Shown: positions 2,630 to 13,900 of the stretch, one piece after another
How the letters are laid out: the number at the start of each line of letters is the position of its first letter
Numbering within the stretch: the stretch's first letter is position 1
Assembly (NCBI GenBank): GCA_937923735.1
Contig: CALDUJ010000069.1
Span: 1 to 48,758 of the forward strand
Direction: 5' to 3'
DNA: 48,758 nt
DNA from: an uncultured Flavobacteriaceae bacterium
GTDB lineage: Bacteria; Bacteroidota; Bacteroidia; Flavobacteriales; Flavobacteriaceae
Made by a program: the position numbers and the translations under genes
The notes under the pieces: generated by a model
Told to the model about the DNA's origin: nothing
What the model saw: the letters and a program-made list of their open reading frames with translations, nothing else
Database searches by the model: none

Positions 2630-3492
2630 ATATTTACTTTACGATTTGTTCTTACAATAGCTTGCTCATTTTTCCAATCTATCCATTTTTGACCTTTAAT
2701 GCGACGCATCAGATTATCGTAATTACGCATGATAAATACATTATAAATGGCCTTTCCCAGATGTTTAGGGTTTCTCGCGATGGCTCTCAAACTCATTGAA
2801 AAACCAGACGTAATATAACGCATATAGTGCCAATAACCTTCGGGCATGTATAGCACATTACCATGCTCCAAGTTTGTGATATATCCTTTTGCATTTTTAA
2901 GTGCTGGCCATTTTTTAAAATCCGGATTATTAAAATCAATGTCTTCTCGAACAATTAACGAATGAGGAATTTTGTACAGATACTTGTTCTGCTTTTGGTC
3001 AAATAGAATACACTGTTTCTTGCCTTCGAAATGAAAATGAAAAATATTCGCCAAATCTATGTCATAGTGCATAAATGTGTGCGAGTCCGTCCCTCCAAAA
3101 AATAGCATTGGTAAACCTTTCATGAGTCGTAATCCAAAATCAGGGAATGTAAAATCCTTTTGGAGCTGTGGTACTTCCTTTAAAATATTCCAAAGAAAAA
3201 TTCTGAATTTAGTTGGTTCTCGCTTCAATAAATCAACATACTCGCTCATCTTCATCTTGGCATGTGGTTCGTTAAAACCATCTTTATAGTCAACTGGACG
3301 GTCATCGTAAAGTGGTACAATTTTATCTCCAGCGACTTCTTTCATATAGTCCAAATTCCATTTAGTATAGGCGGGCCAATCATTAACAAACTCTTCAATA
3401 ACAACTGGTTTTTGTGGTTTGAAGTAGTTTTTAATGAAATCTTCTTTGGTAATGGTTTTTACCCTTGGTATGTCTTGAAGGTTCAGTTTCAA
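2626..3492 (-). CDS. Cupin-like / JmjC-domain protein (putative Fe(II)/2-oxoglutarate oxygenase)
   Basis: 288 aa. It has an HxD...H facial triad candidate (MHYD at about residues 141-144, WHY at about residue 222) and the N-terminal WPAxxKW motif typical of bacterial JmjC/cupin-8 proteins. Confidence 0.75.
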   Translation of the reverse strand: MKLNLQDIPRVKTITKEDFIKNYFKPQKPVVIEEFVNDWPAYTKWNLDYMKEVAGDKIVPLYDDRPVDYKDGFNEPHAKMKMSEYVDLLKREPTKFRIFLWNILKEVPQLQKDFTFPDFGLRLMKGLPMLFFGGTDSHTFMHYDIDLANIFHFHFEGKKQCILFDQKQNKYLYKIPHSLIVREDIDFNNPDFKKWPALKNAKGYITNLEHGNVLYMPEGYWHYMRYITSGFSMSLRAIARNPKHLGKAIYNVFIMRNYDNLMRRIKGQKWIDWKNEQAIVRTNRKVNI

Positions 3493-3542
3493 ATCTATAT
3501 ACTTTACACAAGTAAATTTAATAAAACGTTACAAAATCAAGT

Positions 3543-5360
3543 TTATTTAAAAGCATACTTTAATCCAAACAACACATTCCCTTTTGGCATTGGTACAAAT
3601 CCTGTCTCAATAAAATCTGCGTTAAAGATGTTATTTGCAATTACCGATGCCTCAAAATCTTTAATATCCCAAATAATACTTGCATCCCATACATTATAAC
3701 TCAATCCTGCAGTACGCTCAGCATGCTTGTAAACAATACTTTGAGTTACATTTTTTAGAAATTGAGATTGGTAAGTTAGTGCAAAATGATGCTTTAATGA
3801 ATTAATCGAGTACCTCGAAAAATTGAGATTTAAGTCCTTAACCTCATCTTCAATAAACGTATACGACCCTCTTATCTGTTGATTAAAGCTATTCATTTCA
3901 AAATTATAAGATCCGCTAGCCTCAAAACCTTTGCTATTAACATCTCTAATGTTTGTTGCTTGAAATAAATCATCTTCATTTTCCTTTACATAGTCTATTA
4001 TCTTATCTGAGTCTCTATTAAAAAAAGCTAAGTTTGCGTTGAATCCATTATTAGCATATTTTAAACCTAACTCTTGAGCAAATGCTTCCTCTGGCTCTAA
4101 ATCAGGATTCCCAAGAGTTGCAGGGTCACTGTAAAACAAATCGGTATATGTCGGGATTCTGTAAGTATACCCAACGTTTCCATAAAGCTTTAAGTTATTG
4201 TTTACTTTATATCCAATATCCAATCCGGGGAACGCGTGAAACTTAAAATCCGAAAAATAATTAACTGCTATACCTGGCGTAATATCCAACTTATCGTCTG
4301 CTAATTTAAAACGATGCTCGACAAAAAGATTGGTCATAAATCGGTCTCTTTGTCCTAAATTATTACTCGAAATACCAACTTTCGCTACATCAATTCCAAA
4401 TCCAGTAATGCCGGCATTAGAAGTATATGAAGCATTAACATCAAACCCAACTTTATTGGTTATATGAAAGTTTCTATAAAAATCAGGGTCTTCACGACGT
4501 AGCAAAAACATATCCTGATTTCTTCTCCAATATACTTGCGGCTTGATGGTAAGGTTCCCTTTCCTTAATTTAGACTGAAAACTCAACAAACTTCCTTGTG
4601 TTTCTTCATACTCGAAGAATGTAGGATTTGTGGTGTAGAAGTTTTGCGCCCCAAACTTTCTATCAGAAAAAGAGGCAATCATCTTTATAGGTGTCTTGTT
4701 CTTATTGAACGTGCTTTTTATAAAGTAATTCTTATTATCATAATCACTATTCAGTCGATGTCCGTCAGAAGTATTTTGTGAAAAATGAACAATATGAGAG
4801 GCTCTAGCATATTCAGCCCCAACAGTTACTGCTGCATTTTGTTGTCCATAAGAACCGCCCTGTATCTCCCCTGTAATTAAGTTGTCCATGGCTTTCTTGG
4901 TTACAATATTAATAGCACCAGTAAATGCGTTCTGTCCGAAGACTCTTGCCGCTGGTCCTTTAATAATTTCAATACGTTCAATAACTTCTATTGGCAAGGC
5001 TAAATTCATAGTATGATGCCCAGTTTGTGCATCTTCAACTTTTATCCCATCTATAAGCAATAGTGTTTGATCAAAACTCCCTCCACGAATATAGAGGTCA
5101 GCTTGCATGCCGTTAGTACCACGCTGTCTTATGTCCACACCAGCAAACTGCTGCAATAATCCTGCAACACTAGTAGCAGCACTTTGCTTAATGTCTTCGG
5201 AAGAAATAACAGTTATAGTTCGAGAGTTTTCTGAAAAAGGAAGGTCAATTCTACTAGATGTAATAACTACGGAATCCAGTGTTTGTTGTACTTGCTGGTC
5301 TTGTGCAAAAGACACTGAAAATATTGCTATAAAAAACAGTGCAACTATTGATTTGTTCAT
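3543..5360 (-). CDS. TonB-dependent receptor (small, BtuB/siderophore-size class)
   Basis: 605 aa. Signal peptide, TonB-box-like DSVVITSS, plug motifs (IRGGSFDQTLLLIDGIKV, IEIIKGPAARVFGQNAFTGAINIVTKK) and a beta-barrel-like C-terminus. Confidence 0.9.
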   Translation of the reverse strand: MNKSIVALFFIAIFSVSFAQDQQVQQTLDSVVITSSRIDLPFSENSRTITVISSEDIKQSAATSVAGLLQQFAGVDIRQRGTNGMQADLYIRGGSFDQTLLLIDGIKVEDAQTGHHTMNLALPIEVIERIEIIKGPAARVFGQNAFTGAINIVTKKAMDNLITGEIQGGSYGQQNAAVTVGAEYARASHIVHFSQNTSDGHRLNSDYDNKNYFIKSTFNKNKTPIKMIASFSDRKFGAQNFYTTNPTFFEYEETQGSLLSFQSKLRKGNLTIKPQVYWRRNQDMFLLRREDPDFYRNFHITNKVGFDVNASYTSNAGITGFGIDVAKVGISSNNLGQRDRFMTNLFVEHRFKLADDKLDITPGIAVNYFSDFKFHAFPGLDIGYKVNNNLKLYGNVGYTYRIPTYTDLFYSDPATLGNPDLEPEEAFAQELGLKYANNGFNANLAFFNRDSDKIIDYVKENEDDLFQATNIRDVNSKGFEASGSYNFEMNSFNQQIRGSYTFIEDEVKDLNLNFSRYSINSLKHHFALTYQSQFLKNVTQSIVYKHAERTAGLSYNVWDASIIWDIKDFEASVIANNIFNADFIETGFVPMPKGNVLFGLKYAFK

Positions 5361-5388
5361 TATTTTTTGATTGTTTAGTATAAGCCGT

Positions 5389-5396
5389 CAAAAATA
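5389..5396 (-). promoter_or_regulatory. Candidate Bacteroidota -7 promoter box TATTTTTG for the TonB-dependent receptor gene
   Basis: The reverse complement of caaaaata matches TAnnTTTG exactly. It lies 29 nt upstream of the ATG at 5360. Confidence 0.4.
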
Positions 5397-5573
5397 AATA
5401 AACCCATTTATTTGGCAAGTTTATGGTTGTTAATATTGTCTTTCTTGTTTAGTGATTATCTTAGTGGGAAAATAATCATACAAATGAAATGAGCCATAAC
5501 TATTCTTTGTACCCACCGAAATGTTTAATGGCGAATTACATCTGACTGGTAAAAAACAATAAAATTTAAACAG

Positions 5574-7385
5574 ATGAAAAACATCTTTCTTCTCTTAGCA
5601 TTTGTTTCAATCTTAAGCTGCAATGCTTCAAAAACTGAAAGTTCCGTTGCACATAATAAAACCAAGGCAAACTTCATTTCATCCGTATATGAAATTTCTT
5701 TTGAGAATGCTGTGCATCATGAAGCTGAAATACATGCAAAATTCAACAATCTTAAAACTGACGAAGTAGAATTTAGAATGAGTAGAACATCTCCTGGGCG
5801 CTACGCTTTACATGAATTTATGAAGAACGTTTATGCTGTTAAAGTAACCGATGGTAAAGGAAATGAATTAAAGACAACACGTCCTGACCCCTATTCCTGG
5901 AAAGTAAACGGACATGATGGTACTTTAAAAGTAAGTTACACACTGTTTGCCAATCGCGGCGGTGGCACCTATGCTCAAATAGACGAAACCCATGCGCATC
6001 TTAATATCCCCGCAACCTTTATATATGTTCCTAGTTTAGCGAATGACGGTATAAAGGTGACATTCAATACCCGAAATGACCTGAACTGGAAAATAGCTAC
6101 ACAACTAAAATCTATAGGAAACAATACATATTATGCCAAGAATCTTCAGTATTTTATGGATAGTCCGACGGAGATCAGTAACCACAGTATTCGTTCTTTC
6201 GATGTAAAAGGACAATCCATAAATTTTGTATTACACCATAATGGCACAGAAGCTGAATTAGACCAATACTTCGAGAAAGTAAAGAAAGTTGTCTTGCAAC
6301 AAGAAGCTATTTACGGCGAGCTTCCAAAATACGATTATGGAGCATACACTTTCTTGGCATGTTATATTCCTAATGCTTCAGGAGATGGTATGGAACATCG
6401 TAACTCAACTATCTTAACAAGTACACGAAGTTTAGCAAATGGCGGTTTAGAGCGCAATTTAGGAACCGTTTCGCATGAGTTTTTTCATTGTTGGAATGTA
6501 GAGCGCATAAGACCACAATCTTTGGAACCTTTTGATTTCGAAGAAGCTAATATGAGTGGCGAACTTTGGTTTGCTGAAGGTTTTACGAGTTATTATGATG
6601 ACTTGACTATTTGTAGAGCAGGACTGACAAGTCAAGAAGATTACATTAAAAATTTAACAGGTACTTTTAACTATGTATGGAATTCGCCAGGAAGGCAATT
6701 CTTCAATCCAATCGAAATGAGCTACCAAGCACCTTTTGTGGATGCTGCCCGTTCGGTAGACCCAGTAAACAGAACTAATACCTTTATTTCTTACTATTCC
6801 TATGGAAGTGCTTTAGCATTGGCTCTCGATTTATCATTAAGAGAAAAAGGCTTAAATCTTGACGACTATATGAAATTGGTATGGAATGCCTTCGGCAAGA
6901 ATGAAGCACCTTATACAGTTACAGACTTACACAAAACCTTAAACACTTATGCTGGAAAAACCTTTGGAGATGATTTCTTTAATAATTACATCTACAAAAG
7001 CGGTATGCCAGACATGAAACATTTATTTAGCACGGTTGGTGTTTCCTTGATTCAACCAAAAGATAAAATCCGCTTTGGTGCTACGGTAAGAGATGGCGTT
7101 TTAGGGAGCGTTACTATGGGAACTTCTGCTTATAATGCTGGGCTTGAAAGTGGCGACAAACTAATACAAATTGGAGAGTATCTTGTAAGCAAAGAGTTAG
7201 ACATAAATGCGATTCTGAATAAGTATGCCATTGGAGATAAAGCTAAAGTAATATATGAGCGTTATGGAAGTAAGAAGGAAACAATAATTAAGTTTTTAGC
7301 AAATAATGCGTATACAATTTCATTAGACAAGAACTCTGATGCTAAGAAGAATGAAAGAGACGCTTGGTTGAGTTCTAAATATTAG
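5574..7385 (+). CDS. M61 family glycyl aminopeptidase with C-terminal PDZ domain
   Basis: 603 aa. Signal peptide, HEFFHCWNVERIRP zinc motif characteristic of M61, and a PDZ-like GLESGDKLIQIGEY near the C-terminus. Confidence 0.85.
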   Translation: MKNIFLLLAFVSILSCNASKTESSVAHNKTKANFISSVYEISFENAVHHEAEIHAKFNNLKTDEVEFRMSRTSPGRYALHEFMKNVYAVKVTDGKGNELKTTRPDPYSWKVNGHDGTLKVSYTLFANRGGGTYAQIDETHAHLNIPATFIYVPSLANDGIKVTFNTRNDLNWKIATQLKSIGNNTYYAKNLQYFMDSPTEISNHSIRSFDVKGQSINFVLHHNGTEAELDQYFEKVKKVVLQQEAIYGELPKYDYGAYTFLACYIPNASGDGMEHRNSTILTSTRSLANGGLERNLGTVSHEFFHCWNVERIRPQSLEPFDFEEANMSGELWFAEGFTSYYDDLTICRAGLTSQEDYIKNLTGTFNYVWNSPGRQFFNPIEMSYQAPFVDAARSVDPVNRTNTFISYYSYGSALALALDLSLREKGLNLDDYMKLVWNAFGKNEAPYTVTDLHKTLNTYAGKTFGDDFFNNYIYKSGMPDMKHLFSTVGVSLIQPKDKIRFGATVRDGVLGSVTMGTSAYNAGLESGDKLIQIGEYLVSKELDINAILNKYAIGDKAKVIYERYGSKKETIIKFLANNAYTISLDKNSDAKKNERDAWLSSKY

Positions 7386-7390
7386 AATAA

Positions 7391-7423
7391 TATTGTTTTT
7401 CAGTATTAAATTATTGTTTTTCA
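7391..7423 (+). repeat. Two identical 12-nt direct repeats TATTGTTTTTCA (7391-7402 and 7412-7423, 21-nt period). An inverted partial copy AAACAATAA lies at 7450-7458.
   Basis: Read directly from the intergenic sequence between the M61 peptidase stop and the first DUF2975 gene. Confidence 0.6.
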
Positions 7424-7433
7424 ATAATTTTTA

Positions 7434-7441
7434 TATATTTG
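7434..7441 (+). promoter_or_regulatory. Candidate -7 promoter box TATATTTG for the DUF2975/HTH/umuCD cluster
   Basis: Exact match to TAnnTTTG, 28 nt upstream of the ATG at 7469. ATTG ends 17 nt upstream at 7416 and is a possible -33 element. Confidence 0.45.
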
Positions 7442-7468
7442 TTATCGTTAAACAATAATATTATAATT

Positions 7469-7975
7469 ATGAAATCTGCAAAAACATTACATTCTATACT
7501 TAGTATAATAATCTATTTAATTTTACTAGTAATCGCCGTTGGTATTATTATGCTTGTTTTATTTTTAACTGGTATTCTGGACACATCAACCATTTTTAAT
7601 GATATTACTGAATACCTAAAAGACCCTAGTCTTTATGTTTTCATGGGGTTGATTCTCATTGTTTATGGCATATTTGTCTACGGACTATGTCAATTGCGCG
7701 CGGCGGCTAAGGGGTTTATTTCTCACCAGTTCTATGATATAAATCATTTGAAAAATTTATCAATTGCAGGAAAATGCTTTGTACTAACTGGCACATTTGC
7801 ATGGTTGTTTGATGGTTTAAGCTCTATTTATTTTCAGAGCAAGTTTAGCTTGTCCATGAATGATAAAACCTTCATGTATTTATTTATAATAGCAATTGGG
7901 TTATTTATAATGATTATTGGTCAAGCGTTAAACGATGCTAGACAACTAAAAGAGGAAAACGAATTAACTATTTGA
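7469..7975 (+). CDS. DUF2975-type small multi-pass membrane protein, paralog 1
   Basis: 168 aa from the ATG at 7469; the track start at 7439 would sit on top of the -7 box. About 4 hydrophobic helices and a C-terminal ...LKEENELTI. It is followed in the cluster by a YozG-like HTH, the usual DUF2975 partner. Confidence 0.75.
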   Translation: MKSAKTLHSILSIIIYLILLVIAVGIIMLVLFLTGILDTSTIFNDITEYLKDPSLYVFMGLILIVYGIFVYGLCQLRAAAKGFISHQFYDINHLKNLSIAGKCFVLTGTFAWLFDGLSSIYFQSKFSLSMNDKTFMYLFIIAIGLFIMIIGQALNDARQLKEENELTI

Positions 7976-7976
7976 T

Positions 7977-8474
7977 ATGAAAAAACTAAAAATTATAATA
8001 TATATACTATTTGGTGCTTTACTTATTGGACTGCTTGTAAACTCTATAATCTCTATTTCAGGATTACTCTTTGAGAATGATATATTGAATGTTGGTCATT
8101 TTACAGAAAAGGATGTACCATTTTACTTAAAAATTATTGCCATATTAAAATTAGTAACACTCCTTCTATTTTGTGTTGGTATATATTACCTAATAAAAAT
8201 TCTGAAAATGTTTACTCAAGGACTTTATTTTTCGAATAGTTTGGAAGAATTATTTAGACAATCTGGCAGGTATTTAATCTTATCAGGAAGTTTAGGTTTT
8301 TTATTAAATCTTACACCATTTATTATTCAAGATTTTAAATATATAATGTACTTAAACTTCGATTCAAAAAGCTTATACATTGCTCTAACAATCATTGGGT
8401 TATTTTTTTATGCCTTTAGCAGAATAATCAATCAAGGAAATTTTTTAAAACAAGAAAACGAACTAACTATTTAA
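7977..8474 (+). CDS. DUF2975-type small multi-pass membrane protein, paralog 2
   Basis: 165 aa with the same architecture and a C-terminal ...LKQENELTI. It starts 1 nt after the previous stop. Confidence 0.75.
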   Translation: MKKLKIIIYILFGALLIGLLVNSIISISGLLFENDILNVGHFTEKDVPFYLKIIAILKLVTLLLFCVGIYYLIKILKMFTQGLYFSNSLEELFRQSGRYLILSGSLGFLLNLTPFIIQDFKYIMYLNFDSKSLYIALTIIGLFFYAFSRIINQGNFLKQENELTI

Positions 8475-8476
8475 TA

Positions 8477-8983
8477 ATGAAGACCAGTATCAAAACATTC
8501 AGGGTTATCTTATTAGTATTTATATGCTTTTATTCTATGGCTGTTGTATATTTTGCCTTTGCTGCATTTTCAGGGCAATACTTCACTCCAGAAAAACTAT
8601 ATAGAACATCCTTTTTTGGGGATTTAATTAAGCCCAATTTTTACGCTTATTATGTATTTAACCTTTTAACTGATATATTTCTGATTTACTCATTATTACA
8701 GCTACTAAAAATAACTGACTTTTTTAAAGAGCAGAATTACTTTACTCCAAAAATTATCAGGCTTTTAAAATCTTCTGGCAGAAATTTTATCGCTACTGCC
8801 CTTATCGGTGTTTTGGGCACAATACTATATAACTATATGTTCACAGAGCATCCTTTAGAGCGTATGTTTATGCCCTTTATTCATCATTTTATGATACTGA
8901 TTCTAGGGCTAGGAATCCTAGTCATAGAAGAAATCCAGAAAAGAGCATTACATATTAAATCTGAAAACGACCTAACAATCTAA
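8477..8983 (+). CDS. DUF2975-type small multi-pass membrane protein, paralog 3
   Basis: 168 aa with the same architecture and a C-terminal ...IKSENDLTI. It starts 2 nt after the previous stop. Confidence 0.75.
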   Translation: MKTSIKTFRVILLVFICFYSMAVVYFAFAAFSGQYFTPEKLYRTSFFGDLIKPNFYAYYVFNLLTDIFLIYSLLQLLKITDFFKEQNYFTPKIIRLLKSSGRNFIATALIGVLGTILYNYMFTEHPLERMFMPFIHHFMILILGLGILVIEEIQKRALHIKSENDLTI

Positions 8984-8985
8984 GC

Positions 8986-9192
8986 ATGGCGATAATCGTA
9001 AATTTAGATGTCATGCTCGCCAAGCGAAAAATGAAAAGCAAAGAGCTTGCAGAAATCATTGGCATTACAACGGCTAATCTTTCTATACTTAAATCCGGAA
9101 AGGCAAAGGCTATCCGTTTCTCTACTTTAGAAGCCATTTGTAAAGCTTTGGATTGCCAACCAAGTGATATTTTGGAGTACGTTGAAGACTAA
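8986..9192 (+). CDS. Small Cro/CI-type (XRE, YozG-like) helix-turn-helix transcriptional regulator
   Basis: 68 aa. MAIIVNLDVMLAKRKMKSKELAEIIGITTANLSILKSGKAKAIRFSTLEAICKALDCQPSDIL is the characteristic YozG-family sequence. It starts 2 nt after the DUF2975 paralog 3 stop. Confidence 0.85.
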   Translation: MAIIVNLDVMLAKRKMKSKELAEIIGITTANLSILKSGKAKAIRFSTLEAICKALDCQPSDILEYVED

Positions 9193-9213
9193 AATCTCGT
9201 ATCTTTATCGTCT

Positions 9214-10473
9214 ATGTATGCCTTAGTAGACTGTAATAATTTTTATGCCTCCTGCGAGCGGGTTTTTAACCCAAATTTGCGCAACAAACCCTTAGTTATT
9301 CTATCTAACAATGATGGTTGCGTCATTTCCAGAAGTGATGAAGTAAAAGCAATGAAAGACTTACCAATGGCAGCTCCAGCTTTTAAATGGGAGCCCTTTT
9401 TTAAAGAACGAAATATTACGGTGCTCTCATCCAACTACCCGTTATATGGTGATATGAGCAGCCGCGTTATGAGAATTTTAGAGCAGTTTACACCGGATGT
9501 AGAAGTATACAGTATTGATGAAGCGTTCCTGCAATTTAAAGGCATGGACCATTATGATTTTAATGACTACGGTGAGCAAATTCGGCATCGCATATTAAAA
9601 TGGACAGGATTACCAGTTTGTGTTGGCATTGCTCCAACCAAGGCATTGAGCAAAGTCGCCAATAAAATTGCTCGAAAATTTCCAGAAAAAACCAAAGGCG
9701 TATATGTTATTGATTCTGAAGTATCTCGGCTAAAAGCACTTAAATGGACCAAGATTGAAAGTGTTTGGGGCATTGGTTATGGGCTTCAAAAACGACTAAA
9801 AGCTAAAGGTTGCAAGACCGCTTACGATTTTACACAACTCCCAGACGATTGGGTACGTAAAACAATGTCGATTACCGCATGGAAACTCAAAAAAGATTTA
9901 GAAGGTATCTCAAAAATTGAACTGGACGAACCCACGACCAAACGTGCCATAGCAACAACTCGAAGCTTTGAACGCACATATTCGGATATTAATAACATAA
10001 AAGAACGTATTTCTACATTCGCCACAAGTTGTGCAGAAAAATTACGTAAACAAAACTCTAGTTGCCATATGATTATGGTTATTTTGAGTAGTAACAGACA
10101 TAAGAAAGATGCCGAACAGCATCGCGCAAAAGCTATGGTAAGTTTATCTTATCCAACAGATTCGTCTTTGATTATAAGCAACGAAGCGGTAAAAGCTGTT
10201 GAAACTATTTTCAAATCAGGTATCAATTATAAACGTGCTGGCGTGATTGTTATGGGATTAGTGCCTACGTACAATCATCAGTTAGATATGTTTCAAAAAG
10301 AAAACCCAAAGCATAAGCCTTTAATGTCTGCTATTGATGGGCTGAATAAAAAATATAAGGACTATAAGATTAAGCTAGGCAACCAAGATCTTAAACGTAC
10401 CTGGAAAATGAAACAGGAGCGTCTGTCTCCAAAATACACAACGAATATTAATGATGTTATTAAGGTGAAGTAA
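9214..10473 (+). CDS. umuC: Y-family DNA polymerase, UmuC-like (DNA polymerase V catalytic subunit)
   Basis: 419 aa. Motifs DCNNFYASCE, SIDEAF, IAPTKALSKVAN and VWGIG are typical of UmuC/ImpB. Confidence 0.9.
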   Translation: MYALVDCNNFYASCERVFNPNLRNKPLVILSNNDGCVISRSDEVKAMKDLPMAAPAFKWEPFFKERNITVLSSNYPLYGDMSSRVMRILEQFTPDVEVYSIDEAFLQFKGMDHYDFNDYGEQIRHRILKWTGLPVCVGIAPTKALSKVANKIARKFPEKTKGVYVIDSEVSRLKALKWTKIESVWGIGYGLQKRLKAKGCKTAYDFTQLPDDWVRKTMSITAWKLKKDLEGISKIELDEPTTKRAIATTRSFERTYSDINNIKERISTFATSCAEKLRKQNSSCHMIMVILSSNRHKKDAEQHRAKAMVSLSYPTDSSLIISNEAVKAVETIFKSGINYKRAGVIVMGLVPTYNHQLDMFQKENPKHKPLMSAIDGLNKKYKDYKIKLGNQDLKRTWKMKQERLSPKYTTNINDVIKVK

Positions 10474-10868
10474 TGAGTAAATCATCTGGAATATTATTTT
10501 TTAACAGTGGGATTTCCGCTGGATTTCCATCTCCCGCAGAGGATTTTAAAGAAGAACGCTTGTCTTTAGATGATGAGTTAATTAAAAACAAAGAAGCCAC
10601 TTTTTTTGCTCGTGTTAGTGGACAATCCATGACTGGCGCTGGATTAGACGATAACGATTTGTTGATTATAGATAGAAGTCTTGAGCCTGAGAATAATAAA
10701 ATAGCTGTTTGTTTTATTGATGGAGAATTTACAGTAAAGCGATTGAAAGTTGAAAACAACTGCATTTGGTTATTACCCGAAAACCCAAAATATAAGGCTA
10801 TAAAAGTGACAGAAGACAATGAATTAGTAATTTGGGGAATTGTTACTACTGTCATCAAAAAAGTATAA
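10473..10868 (+). CDS. umuD: UmuD-like S24 peptidase (LexA-type autoprotease domain, no HTH)
   Basis: 131 aa. SAGFPSPAEDF aligns with E. coli UmuD QCGFPSPA, giving an Ala-Gly cleavage site. It has the Ser nucleophile in SGQSM and the Lys in GEFTVKRL. The ATG overlaps the umuC stop by 1 nt (TAATG). Confidence 0.85.
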   Translation: MSKSSGILFFNSGISAGFPSPAEDFKEERLSLDDELIKNKEATFFARVSGQSMTGAGLDDNDLLIIDRSLEPENNKIAVCFIDGEFTVKRLKVENNCIWLLPENPKYKAIKVTEDNELVIWGIVTTVIKKV

Positions 10869-10928
10869 TCTTTTAGACATCTCATCAATAAATTCTTCTT
10901 AAATTTAATGCTTATCAAATCCTCATTA

Positions 10929-13900
10929 ATGACTAAGAAGCTTTTTGTCGTTTTATCATTATTTGCACTATACTTCAACTGCTCCGAAGAAAAGAAAGAG
11001 ACGCCAAAATCCGGAGAGTCAAAAATCCTTTTTACTAAAATACCGAGTACTCAATCTTCTATAAATTTTGCGAATACAATTGAGGAACGTTTAGATTTTA
11101 ATTTCCTAAATTATTCCTATATCTATAACGGCGGTGGTGTTGCCATAGGAGATATTAATAATGATGGATTGGAAGATATTTATTTTACCTCCAATCAAAA
11201 TTCTAATAAATTATATTTAAATAAAGGTGATTTCAAGTTCAAGGATATTACCGAAACTGCCAATGTAAAAGATGACAATGGCTGGTCTACAGGTGTCACC
11301 ATGGTCGACATTAATAATGATGGTTGGTTGGATATTTATGTATGTAAATCTGGCGAATTAAAGAATCCGGAACTAAGGCGAAACAAGCTTTTTATAAATC
11401 AAAAAAATAATACATTTAAAGAAGAGGCTAATAAATATGGCCTGAATCAGCAAGGATTCTCTACACAAGCCTACTTTTTTGATTACGATAACGACAACGA
11501 TTTAGACATGTATCTTGTTAATCATCGTGCGGATTTTAGGAACAATACTAAAATAAGTTTCGAAATACAACGACAATTTACACAAGAAGACACCGATCAT
11601 TTATTCAGAAATGATAATGGAAAATTTACTGATGTAACTAGTCAGTCAGGTACTGTAAACAAAGCATGGGGGCTGAGTGCTTCCATCGGAGATTTCAATA
11701 ATGATGGTTGGTCCGACATCTACGTAGCCAACGATTTTTTGGAGCCCGATTTATTATACATAAACAACAAAAACGGCACATTTACTAATAAGATTCTCGA
11801 TTATTTTAAACACATCTCTTTTAATAGTATGGGTTCTGACTTTGCCGATATTAATAATGACATGCTTCCAGACCTTATTGTTTTGGATATGATGGCTGAA
11901 GACCGCATTCGTGGAAAGGAGAACATGGCAACCATGAGCACTGAAAACTTCAACCAGATTGTAAATGTTGGATATCATCATCAGTATATGTCCAATATGC
12001 TTCAAAAAAATAATGGCAATGCCACTTTTAGTGAGATTGGACAACTCTCAGGAATAGCAAAAACAGATTGGAGTTGGGCGCCACTCATCGCAGATTTTAA
12101 TAATGACGGTTACAATGATGTATTTGTAACCAATGGCATAAAGCATGACCTATCCAATCAAGATTTTAGAAATAATGTAAGGCAACTAACGGCCAATAAA
12201 AAACAAATGACATTAGAGCAAGCTATTAACATGATGCCGTCAGCAAAGTTGAGCAACTATATGTTTACCAATAATTCTGACTATATTTTTAAAAATTCTA
12301 CAAAGAAGTTTGAGTTAGATGAAAAGATAAACTCCAATGGTGCTGCCTACGCAGATTTAGATAATGATGGCGATTTAGACCTTGTAGTAAATAATCAATC
12401 TGATAAAGCATCTATTTACAAAAATAATTCTGAAGCCAATTATCTGAGAGTCTCACTCCAAGGTCCAAAAAACAACTTAAAAAGTATTGGAGCAAAAGTA
12501 GAAGTTTATGCTAATGGGGATCAGCAAATAAAAGAAGTATATCCAAGCAGAGGATTCCAGTCATCAGTTAGTTATGTATTGAATTTTGGATTAGGTAACG
12601 CCGAAAAAATAGATAGCCTCAAGGTGACTTGGAATACCACTAAAGAGCAAAGATTGACTAATATTGATACAAATAAGCATCTTAAATTATCTTATGCTGA
12701 TGCCATAAATAAAGTAGCTAAAAAATCAGATTCAGATTCTAATTTTAAACCAATAAATCCATCAACGATTGGCATAAACTATAAACACAAAGCGGTAGAT
12801 TTTAACGATTACGACATCCAATTGCTATTACCTCAAAAACAATCAACTATTGATAATGCGCTCGCAGTCGCAGATGTAAACAATGATGGTTTAGATGATT
12901 TTTTTGTTGGAAATACATCGGGGCAAAGTGCTGTACTTTATATCCAAAATACCACTGGAAAATTCAGCCTTTCCAATGAAGTACTCTTCCAGAGAGATAA
13001 AAAATTCAATGATAACAACGCCCTCTTTTTTGATGCAGATGGTGATAAAGATTTGGATTTATTTGTTGCCTCAGGAAACTATAGTCAGCCCGAGAACAGT
13101 CCTCTATTGCAAGACCGATTGTATATAAATGATGGCAAGGGGAACTTTTCAAAAAGCAATAAACTCCCAAAAATGCTAACTATTACAAAAGCCATTGCTG
13201 CAAATGATTTTGATAATGATGGCGACCAAGACTTGTTTATTGGTGGACGTGTAATTCCTAGCATGTATCCTAATGCGCCAGAATCATATTTACTTGAAAA
13301 CAGAAACGGAAAATTCTTCAACATTACAGAAAACAAAGGAAAAGAACTCAAGAATATTGGCTTAGTTAATGATGCTATTTTTTCTGATTATGACAAGGAT
13401 GGAGATGAAGATTTGATTGTCGTAGGCGAATGGATGTCTGTTTCAATTTTTAATAATAATGAAGATGTATTCTCTAAAGTTGAATCCGGTTTCGATGATT
13501 TAAAAGGTTGGTTTCAATCTATTAAAGCTATAGATTTAGATAATGATGGCGACGAGGATTATCTTGTTGGAAACATGGGTGAGAACAATAAATTTCATCC
13601 TTCAAAAGAAAAACCACTTCATATTTACGCCAATCATTTTGACGATAACGACAGTTATGATATTGCTTTAAGTAAGGAATATCAAGGGGAATTATTTCCT
13701 GTAAGAGGGAAAGAATGTTCCTCTGAGCAAACTCCTTTCTTAAATGAAAAATTTGGCACCTATAAAGGTTTTGCCGCATCTAACATTGTAGATGTTTACG
13801 GTGAAGAAAATATTGCAAATGCCCTACATTTAGAGGTAACTACCTTCAGTTCTTACTACATTAAAAATAATGGTAATGGTAATCTTGAAACGGTTAAGTT

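Follow-up and report, generated by a model that had tools for sequence, protein, structure and literature searches.

The window analysed here, a stretch of 48,758 nucleotides (nt) from an uncultured Flavobacteriaceae bacterium (assembly GCA_937923735.1, contig CALDUJ010000069.1, positions 1 to 48,758 of the forward strand), carries at 7389-10868 a cluster of six closely packed genes, placed in a block that runs from a TonB-dependent receptor gene to the atpCD genes. Three of the genes encode DUF2975 membrane proteins (D1 to D3), the fourth encodes a small helix-turn-helix (HTH) regulator of the YozG-like kind, and the last two encode UmuC and UmuD, the components of the error-prone DNA polymerase V (Pol V). 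A preliminary description of this DNA had proposed that the HTH/membrane module is co-transcribed with umuCD and regulates it. The comparison with related loci favours, with modest confidence, a different arrangement in which two units are merely neighbours, namely a DUF2975-HTH operon (7389-9192) and an umuC-umuD pair (9200-10868) with its own promoter. The genes of the cluster are as follows.

7469-7975, + strand: D1, DUF2975 membrane protein, 168 aa (PF11188, 28.6 bits)
7977-8474, + strand: D2, DUF2975 membrane protein, 165 aa (PF11188, 28.2 bits)
8477-8983, + strand: D3, DUF2975 membrane protein, 168 aa (PF11188, 56.7 bits)
8986-9192, + strand: YozG-like Cro/C1 HTH (HTH_26), 68 aa, presumed autorepressor (PF13443, 7e-26)
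9214-10473, + strand: umuC, Y-family DNA polymerase, the Pol V catalytic subunit, 419 aa (IMS, IMS_C and DUF4113)
10473-10868, + strand: umuD, S24 autoproteolytic subunit, 131 aa (Peptidase_S24, 4.6e-30; NF007621, 167.5 bits)

The six-gene layout, the strand and the gaps of the preliminary description were reproduced exactly from the listing of open reading frames (ORFs), and its family assignments (three DUF2975 proteins, a small HTH, UmuC and UmuD) are backed by Pfam and NCBIfam matches, the gathering cutoff of PF11188 being 27 bits. The intergenic gaps measure 1, 2, 2 and 21 nt, and umuC and umuD overlap by 1 nt in the sequence TAATG, through which umuD would be translationally coupled to umuC; the DUF2975 genes are likewise probably coupled in translation. 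An alternative TTG start for the first gene exists at 7439, but ATG 7469 is the better start of D1 because the TTG precedes the predicted transcription start. The hairpin search of the + strand found no stem-loop terminator inside the cluster, in agreement with the preliminary description, and found none after umuD or after the gene that follows it. The region has 6 terminator-like matches, which is what shuffled sequence leads one to expect (5.1). Since other gene ends also lack a terminator and the matches stay at the shuffle level, the missing terminator does not discriminate between one operon and two. An Rfam scan of the whole window matched no family.

The region upstream of D1 holds a set of predicted control elements, which are listed here.

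7389-7407, + strand: auxiliary operator-like site AATATTGTTTTTCAGTATT, 3/14 mismatches to ATTATTG-N5-CAATAAT, 21 nt upstream of O1
7410-7428, + strand: main operator O1, ATTATTG-TTTTT-CAATAAT, a perfect dyad between the -33 TTG (7414-7416) and the -7 box
7434-7441, + strand: sigma-A type -7 box TATATTTG, predicted transcription start at about 7446, 5' untranslated region of about 23 nt
7441-7459, + strand: second operator O2, GTTATCG-TTAAA-CAATAAT, 2 mismatches, overlapping the predicted transcription start

The main operator O1 sits between the stop codon of a gene for an M61 peptidase and D1. It is a perfect 9-nt inverted repeat whose dyad spans 7408-7430, and the direct repeat TATTGTTTTTCAnTA occurs twice at a spacing of 21 nt. 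The preliminary description had named TATATTTG at 7434-7441 as the only exact TAnnTTTG, and this is correct for the + strand from 7300 to 10950; in F. psychrophilum the sigma-A -7 box occupies -12 to -5 (PMC9723704). A scan of 1.07 Mb of related loci for ATTATTG-N5-CAATAAT with no more than two mismatches gave 98 matches, nearly all of them directly 5' of the gene with which a DUF2975-HTH unit begins, on contigs that range from marine Flavobacteriaceae to a human-gut metagenome. Conversely, the site is present at this place in almost every related locus. The spacing is conserved as well. Among 44 distinct related promoter contexts, the -7 box begins 24-26 nt after the O1 start in 40, an extra operator lies at -21 in 30, and another lies at +31 to +33 in 16. 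As far as sequence can tell, this looks like the layout of an autorepressed promoter. The 68-aa Cro/C1 repressor most likely binds three sites of the ATTATTG-N5-CAATAAT type, spaced two and three helical turns apart, and since these predicted sites enclose the transcription start together with the -33 and -7 elements, the protein would repress its own operon.

The preliminary description had called DUF2975 with a small Cro/C1 HTH a widespread two-gene module, and this pairing was indeed seen in most of the HTH-anchored loci (see also bioRxiv 10.64898/2026.09.15.751765). Most of those loci with enough upstream sequence have an ORF that ends within 16 nt of the HTH gene, 12 have none, and 71 distinct proteins end at such a position. 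The gaps between DUF2975 and HTH genes are mostly 1-3 nt in Flavobacteriaceae-type loci and reach about 15 nt in more distant ones. The HTH protein itself is 94-99% identical across Flavobacteriaceae genera whose UmuC is only 65-82% identical. A sequence search of the PDB with the HTH returned one entry, 3tyr, named only as a predicted transcriptional regulator (E = 7e-5), and PADLOC gave generic HTH matches only.

The closest known counterpart is the YoaS-YozG operon of Bacillota, which has the same domain pair and the same tight coupling of 1-3 nt. A literature search found DUF2975 in four papers, and yozG and yoaS named jointly only in a 2026 preprint, in which inverted repeats upstream of YoaS-YozG operons are described in other phyla (bioRxiv 10.64898/2026.09.15.751765). 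As in the window, the AT-rich upstream region of that operon has inverted repeats consistent with autoregulation. The window differs from it in several respects: it has three diverged versions of the membrane gene, the unit abuts umuCD, the HTH hardly varies within an entire family, and the repeats form a defined dyad, ATTATTG-N5-CAATAAT, of which as many as three phased copies surround a promoter of the Bacteroidota -33/-7 type.

The umuC gene appears to have a promoter of its own. The regions upstream of umuC were aligned from 35 species-level loci retrieved with UmuC, plus further contigs, and a single conserved block emerged, TAyCTTTA/G, a few bases before the ATG. In the window this block is the following element.

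9200-9207, + strand: umuC -7-like box TATCTTTA, 6 nt before the ATG, predicted transcription start at about 9212 (2 nt ahead of the ATG)

Of 43 distinct upstream regions, 29 have the motif TAnnTTT[AG] with its end 3-7 nt ahead of the umuC ATG, against 0.008 expected per locus, and 13 others hold a variant of the box that is one base shorter. Loci with a divergent gene upstream and without any HTH gene have the box too, and hence it cannot have been left over from an operon junction. In some loci (L004, L028) the orthologous box has the canonical G at its end; the box of the window ends in A, for which reason the preliminary description had missed it. This conservation suggests a separate, nearly leaderless sigma-A promoter for umuC. 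In F. psychrophilum 5.5% of mRNAs are leaderless (PMC9723704), and umuC is not mentioned in the transcription start site supplements for that species.

The possible regulators of such a promoter were sought in the surrounding sequence. Neither of the published Bacteroidota SOS boxes, one being GGA-N5-TCC, the other CTAA-N5-TTAG, occurs within 100 nt of umuC or in 7386-7468 when one mismatch is allowed, and the window-wide counts of both are at or below chance. CTAA-N5-TTAG is the published box of the non-canonical LexA, and umuDC is a core SOS target in Bacteroidetes (PMC8565304). The regulon of that CI-like S24 repressor (Sanchez-Osuna et al. 2021, PMC8565304) comes from the same phylum, and twelve loci carry a one-mismatch form of its box, whereas neither GGA-N5-TCC nor CTAA-N5-TTAG is found near the window cluster. 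The one-mismatch form, CTATGTAATTTAG, occurs mostly in Flagellimonas/Allomuricauda/Muricauda (the loci include L013-L016, L019, L020, L022, L024, L026, L031 and L033). It starts 35-37 nt before the umuC ATG and directly upstream of the -7 element, which is the expected position of an operator; in the window the matching position is taken up by the end of the HTH gene. A divergent, as yet undescribed SOS box at umuC is possible. The window ORFs of at least 60 aa include no second S24 protein and no relative of the candidate repressor discussed below. An exact CTAA-N5-TTAG within the first DUF2975 gene of L062/L136-139 was treated as a coincidence, as it encodes a recurrent ILKSL N-terminal motif.

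The operator of the HTH, too, is missing from the umuC promoter. The region upstream of umuC in the window scores -14.5 bits on the position weight matrix of the operator (maximum 33), and a search for dyads in 9140-9235 returned none. The preliminary description's suggestion that the HTH/membrane module regulates umuCD is therefore weakened, since the operator is confined to the DUF2975 promoter and is never found near umuC, and since the adjacency of the two units is no commoner than that of unrelated neighbours (see below). As a separate observation, a weak match to the operator, TTATTATTTTTTATCAGTA, reaches 11-12 of the possible 33 bits directly upstream of the umuC -7 box in L007 and L009 only, where reverse genes part umuC from the HTH; the score is at about the 99th percentile of background and may be due to chance.

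The two products of the second unit are of a known kind. The S24 protein passes the NCBIfam UmuD model NF007621 at 167.5 bits (cutoff 110) and stays below the cutoff of the LexA model (82.5 bits, cutoff 110.95), and its translation contains the Ala-Gly site ISA|GFPSP, the serine in GQSM and the lysine in VKRL. Homologs of the polymerase are 78-92% identical, and those that are named all belong to Flavobacteriaceae (Winogradskyella, Confluentibacter, Psychroserpens and others). With E. coli umuDC the pair shares a Y-family polymerase with a UmuC-type C-terminus (DUF4113) and an S24 partner in which an Ala-Gly cleavage site is combined with a Ser/Lys dyad. It differs from umuDC in the reversed order (umuC-umuD), in the lack of a detected LexA box, in a promoter that is probably leaderless, and in the score of UmuC, for which the UmuC model is the best of the Y-family models at 347 bits, ahead of 156 for the best Pol IV model, yet short of the 431 that the UmuC model requires. 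The order umuC then umuD is seen in 33 of the 34 loci with both genes (L001-L035; umuC at about 6001-7260), often with overlapping stop and start codons, and umuD comes first only in L030 (Flavobacterium sp., 53% identity).

The presence of an HTH gene and an S24 gene in one cluster had led the preliminary description to the idea that the two are the separately encoded halves of a LexA/CI repressor that would act as a damage-cleavable regulator. What speaks for it is domain arithmetic, as an HTH and an S24 domain together make up the LexA/CI architecture. The S24 protein, however, passes the UmuD model and fails the LexA model, has the UmuD-type Ala-Gly site, and has no spare N-terminal domain. 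The two genes also segregate independently: UmuD stands beside UmuC in 34 of 35 loci, 29 of which have no HTH, and dozens of loci without an S24 gene have the HTH together with DUF2975. The HTH showed no BLASTP similarity to the N-terminal domain of a candidate repressor of the CI-like HTH-XRE type (L055 1198-1956, of untested family). The idea is contradicted by these comparative data, and it has been rejected as extremely improbable.

The decisive question is whether the DUF2975-HTH unit and umuCD belong together, and the order of the genes in relatives gives a divided answer. The order D(n)-HTH-umuC-umuD recurs with junctions of 20-69 nt in the window, L001, L029, L035/L046, L062/L136-139, L071, L140 and L141. 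These carriers include uncultured Winogradskyella and Lutibacter-like contigs, and they represent several genera and at least three types of flank. In one lineage (L027, L047 and L048) the HTH and umuCD stand together without DUF2975. To this extent the adjacency that the preliminary description had noticed is conserved, but in many relatives the order is rearranged, interrupted or absent. For example, umuCD lies upstream of D-HTH in L036, L037 and L045, beyond the M61 peptidase gene in L053 and L067, and on the opposite strand in L056 and L061. Other examples include the separation of umuCD from the module by reverse genes (L007, L009), the presence of umuD alone or of umuC as fragments (L054, L055, L060, L066), and the absence of umuCD altogether (L038-L043). 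The DUF2975-HTH module is in turn absent from 29 of the 35 species loci.

Counts of neighbours point the same way. Among 34 distinct loci whose HTH is at least 84% identical to that of the window, the gene 3' of the HTH is M61 in 10, umuC in 8, another gene in 7, and missing or convergent in 9; with more distant HTHs (below 84% identity), umuC is never downstream (0/42 loci). Within 6 kb of umuC, the synteny control finds the HTH in 6/35 loci, a TonB-receptor in 6/35, atpCD in 5/35 and DUF2007 in 5/35, a small sample with counts not corrected for phylogeny. In the HTH-anchored metagenome contigs of at least 8 kb, UmuD (10/29) and UmuC (7/29) are the commonest labelled neighbours. A TonB-receptor is a neighbour as often as UmuC is. 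The comparative evidence, as it stands in these sequences, does not mark out umuCD as a target to which the module is dedicated. The simplest reading of it would be an old syntenic block of the Flavobacteriaceae, from the TonB-dependent receptor to atpCD, in which two self-sufficient units have been shuffled.

The alternative closest to the preliminary description is that the promoter at 7434-7441 drives all six genes as a single operon, and that the YozG-like repressor, modulated by the DUF2975 proteins, sets the level of Pol V in response to a membrane or envelope signal, in place of a LexA-type repressor or on top of it. This is regarded as rather unlikely. The shared strand, the short gap and the hairpin-free HTH/umuC junction (z = +1.25) are in its favour, as are the recurrence of the order in several genera with three flank types, the persistence of HTH-umuCD after the loss of DUF2975, and the rank of UmuD and UmuC among the labelled neighbours of the HTH. 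In L091, moreover, another mutagenesis cassette (imuB-like and dnaE2-like) abuts the HTH. Against these stands the umuC -7 box itself, which is contained in every HTH-to-umuC gap and has been retained though the surrounding spacer has diverged, and which is shared with loci where umuC leads its unit; on this ground a single promoter for the module and umuCD appears unlikely. The lack of an HTH operator near umuC, the loci that lack umuCD or have it upstream of the module or on the opposite strand, the equal frequency of M61 after the HTH and of the TonB-receptor as a neighbour, and the failure of distant HTHs to precede umuC argue in the same direction.

The reading of two units with separate promoters has its own difficulties. 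Two same-strand genes with a gap of 21 nt and no terminator would as a rule be assigned to one operon, and the retention of the HTH-umuC junction in at least three flanking contexts and in the lineage without DUF2975 exceeds simple inertia. The -33 element of umuC is poor (TTG, with a 15-nt spacer) and its box ends in A where the consensus has G; what argues for this putative promoter is its conservation. In addition, without a published SOS box no regulator of its own can be assigned to umuCD in this segment, and no locus that also carries the HTH has a published SOS box upstream of umuC, which would suit a single operon better.

Between two units so placed, with no terminator in between, some read-through from the first into umuCD is likely, which would be a by-product of adjacency and not a dedicated circuit. 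A stronger form of this coupling would have read-through on derepression make Pol V respond to a membrane or envelope cue through the conserved tail of the DUF2975 proteins (ENxLT[IV]), leading to induced mutagenesis independent of the SOS response. This version would apply to the Flavobacteriaceae lineages in which the HTH abuts umuC and there is no LexA-type box, and it is doubtful. That the expression of Pol V at this locus is partly governed by the DUF2975-HTH module is, on the whole, an unlikely proposition of similar weight.

The three membrane proteins are old paralogs, as the preliminary description had stated, and not the result of a recent duplication: they are mutually 25-29% identical and belong to different subfamilies, which other genera also have. 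All three end in a common C-terminal ENELTI/ENDLTI. Hydropathy indicates four transmembrane segments in D2 and D3 and three above the threshold in D1, and the AlphaFold2 model of D3 consists of four long helices (predicted local distance difference test score, pLDDT, 79.9). From hydropathy, the positive-inside rule and the four-helix model, both termini, and with them the tail, are predicted to be cytoplasmic. A Foldseek search of the PDB with the D3 model returned nothing beyond generic four-helix bundles of membrane proteins (TARP, TolQ; best E = 0.29). The tail is nearly invariant. The 71 distinct proteins 5' of an HTH have, over their last six residues, E in 67, N in 62, D/E in 68, L in 71, T in 66 and I/V in 71; this test is not circular, as every ORF ending within 16 nt before the HTH gene was taken.

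The bodies of the proteins and their number vary far more. Contiguous DUF2975 copies 5' of the HTH number none in 6 loci, one in 42, two in 19 and three in 4, and four copies occur in one locus (L070), so the triple array of the window is unusual. In L140, where UmuC is 89% identical, the D1 ortholog is 50% and the D2 ortholog 73% identical, and D3 has almost no detectable homologs (a word-based search of 5.8 billion clusters found two only). The sister strain L141, with a UmuC that is 99% identical, precisely lacks D2 (window 7977-8474 versus L141 4972-5005), the DNA identity across the two segments that flank D2 being 94.6-98.0%. The junction of this absence falls in the conserved ENELTI-coding gene ends of about 30 nt that neighbouring cassettes have in common, which suggests that cassettes are gained or lost when gene ends recombine with each other. 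A gene for an IS200/IS605-type Y1 transposase lies within the L140 array at 3257-3700, between the D1 and D2 orthologs.

Such turnover raises the alternative that DUF2975-HTH is a fast-turnover accessory cassette, of an immunity-, exclusion- or defence-like nature, in a recombination-prone slot and unrelated to DNA repair. The variable copy number, the presence of D2 in the window and its absence from so close a strain with the junction in conserved ends, the transposase in L140, the divergence of D1 and D2 relative to UmuC and the near lack of D3 homologs are all consistent with this. However, neither PADLOC nor PHROGs has a match for the DUF2975 proteins, the flanks are syntenic core genes, and the HTH is chromosomal, single-copy per locus and 94-99% conserved, as would be expected of a vertically inherited housekeeping regulator more than of a mobile element. 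The alternative is accordingly held to be improbable.

Within the reading of two units, the combination of hypervariable bodies and a near-invariant cytoplasmic tail, E-N-[DE]-L-T-[IV], suggests a division of labour. The membrane proteins would modulate the repressor, for example by binding it or sequestering it at the membrane; the tail may be the point of contact with the repressor and the variable bodies may be the inputs, so that several paralogs could feed different inputs into one repressor. In E. coli the repressor Mlc is sequestered at the membrane by PtsG, which is a case of a repressor held by an integral membrane partner. The likeness lies in a small soluble repressor, here encoded together with membrane proteins, that is possibly controlled via a conserved cytoplasmic segment; there is no homology to DUF2975-HTH, and Mlc/PtsG serves as a working model by analogy only. 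Recognition of the DUF2975 C-terminus by the PDZ domain of the M61 peptidase was considered and dropped, since the tail is predicted to be cytoplasmic and M61 to be exported, the latter because a lipoprotein signal is read from its N-terminal sequence.

Both modules, the YoaS/YozG-type pair and Pol V, are of known kinds. What is new is how the operators are arranged, the combination of an invariant tail with cassette-like turnover, and the putative leaderless promoter of umuC. If the units are independent, the locus is a case of ordinary synteny. It then provides a precise operator and promoter architecture for a very widespread and uncharacterised DUF2975/YozG-type module, an invariant cytoplasmic tail as a hint at how repressor and membrane partner might communicate, and a conserved, apparently leaderless umuC promoter in Flavobacteriaceae, many of which have no published SOS box upstream of umuCD. 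If the coupling by read-through were true, an error-prone polymerase would be tied to a signal other than DNA damage in abundant marine bacteria, which would bear on the control of stress-induced mutagenesis beyond the LexA paradigm.

Several minor observations concern the same gene families. In L091, the imuB-like and dnaE2-like genes (5208-9394) encode a 405-aa Y-family/ImuB-like and a 990-aa DnaE2-like protein and are convergent to the HTH with zero bases between the gene ends. Just beyond, at 9466-10200, lies a gene for a CI-like HTH-XRE protein, a possible non-canonical LexA, and the similar gene is the one at L055 1198-1956. In L136 (uncultured Winogradskyella), umuC and umuD are parted by a spacer of 102 nt (5757-5860) with the hairpin-forming repeats TTCCTTT-GAAA-AAAGGAA and TTCCCCTTTTTCAAGGGAA, which are not present in the window, where the two genes overlap. 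Orphan umuD genes occur near a DUF2975-HTH unit without an intact umuC in marine contigs (L054 3976-4404, L055 2778-3215, L066 3888-4322 and L060 1240-1621), L060 having umuC fragments on the opposite strand, and Pol V appears from these sequences to be decaying in some lineages. In L036 (2761-2967), L038 (3268-3474) and L039 (2703-2909), the operator/promoter is separated from the first DUF2975 gene by an ORF of 68 aa without a Pfam match; these contigs carry an HTH 99% identical to that of the window, from which the ORF is distinct, and it may represent a small membrane peptide or a remnant.

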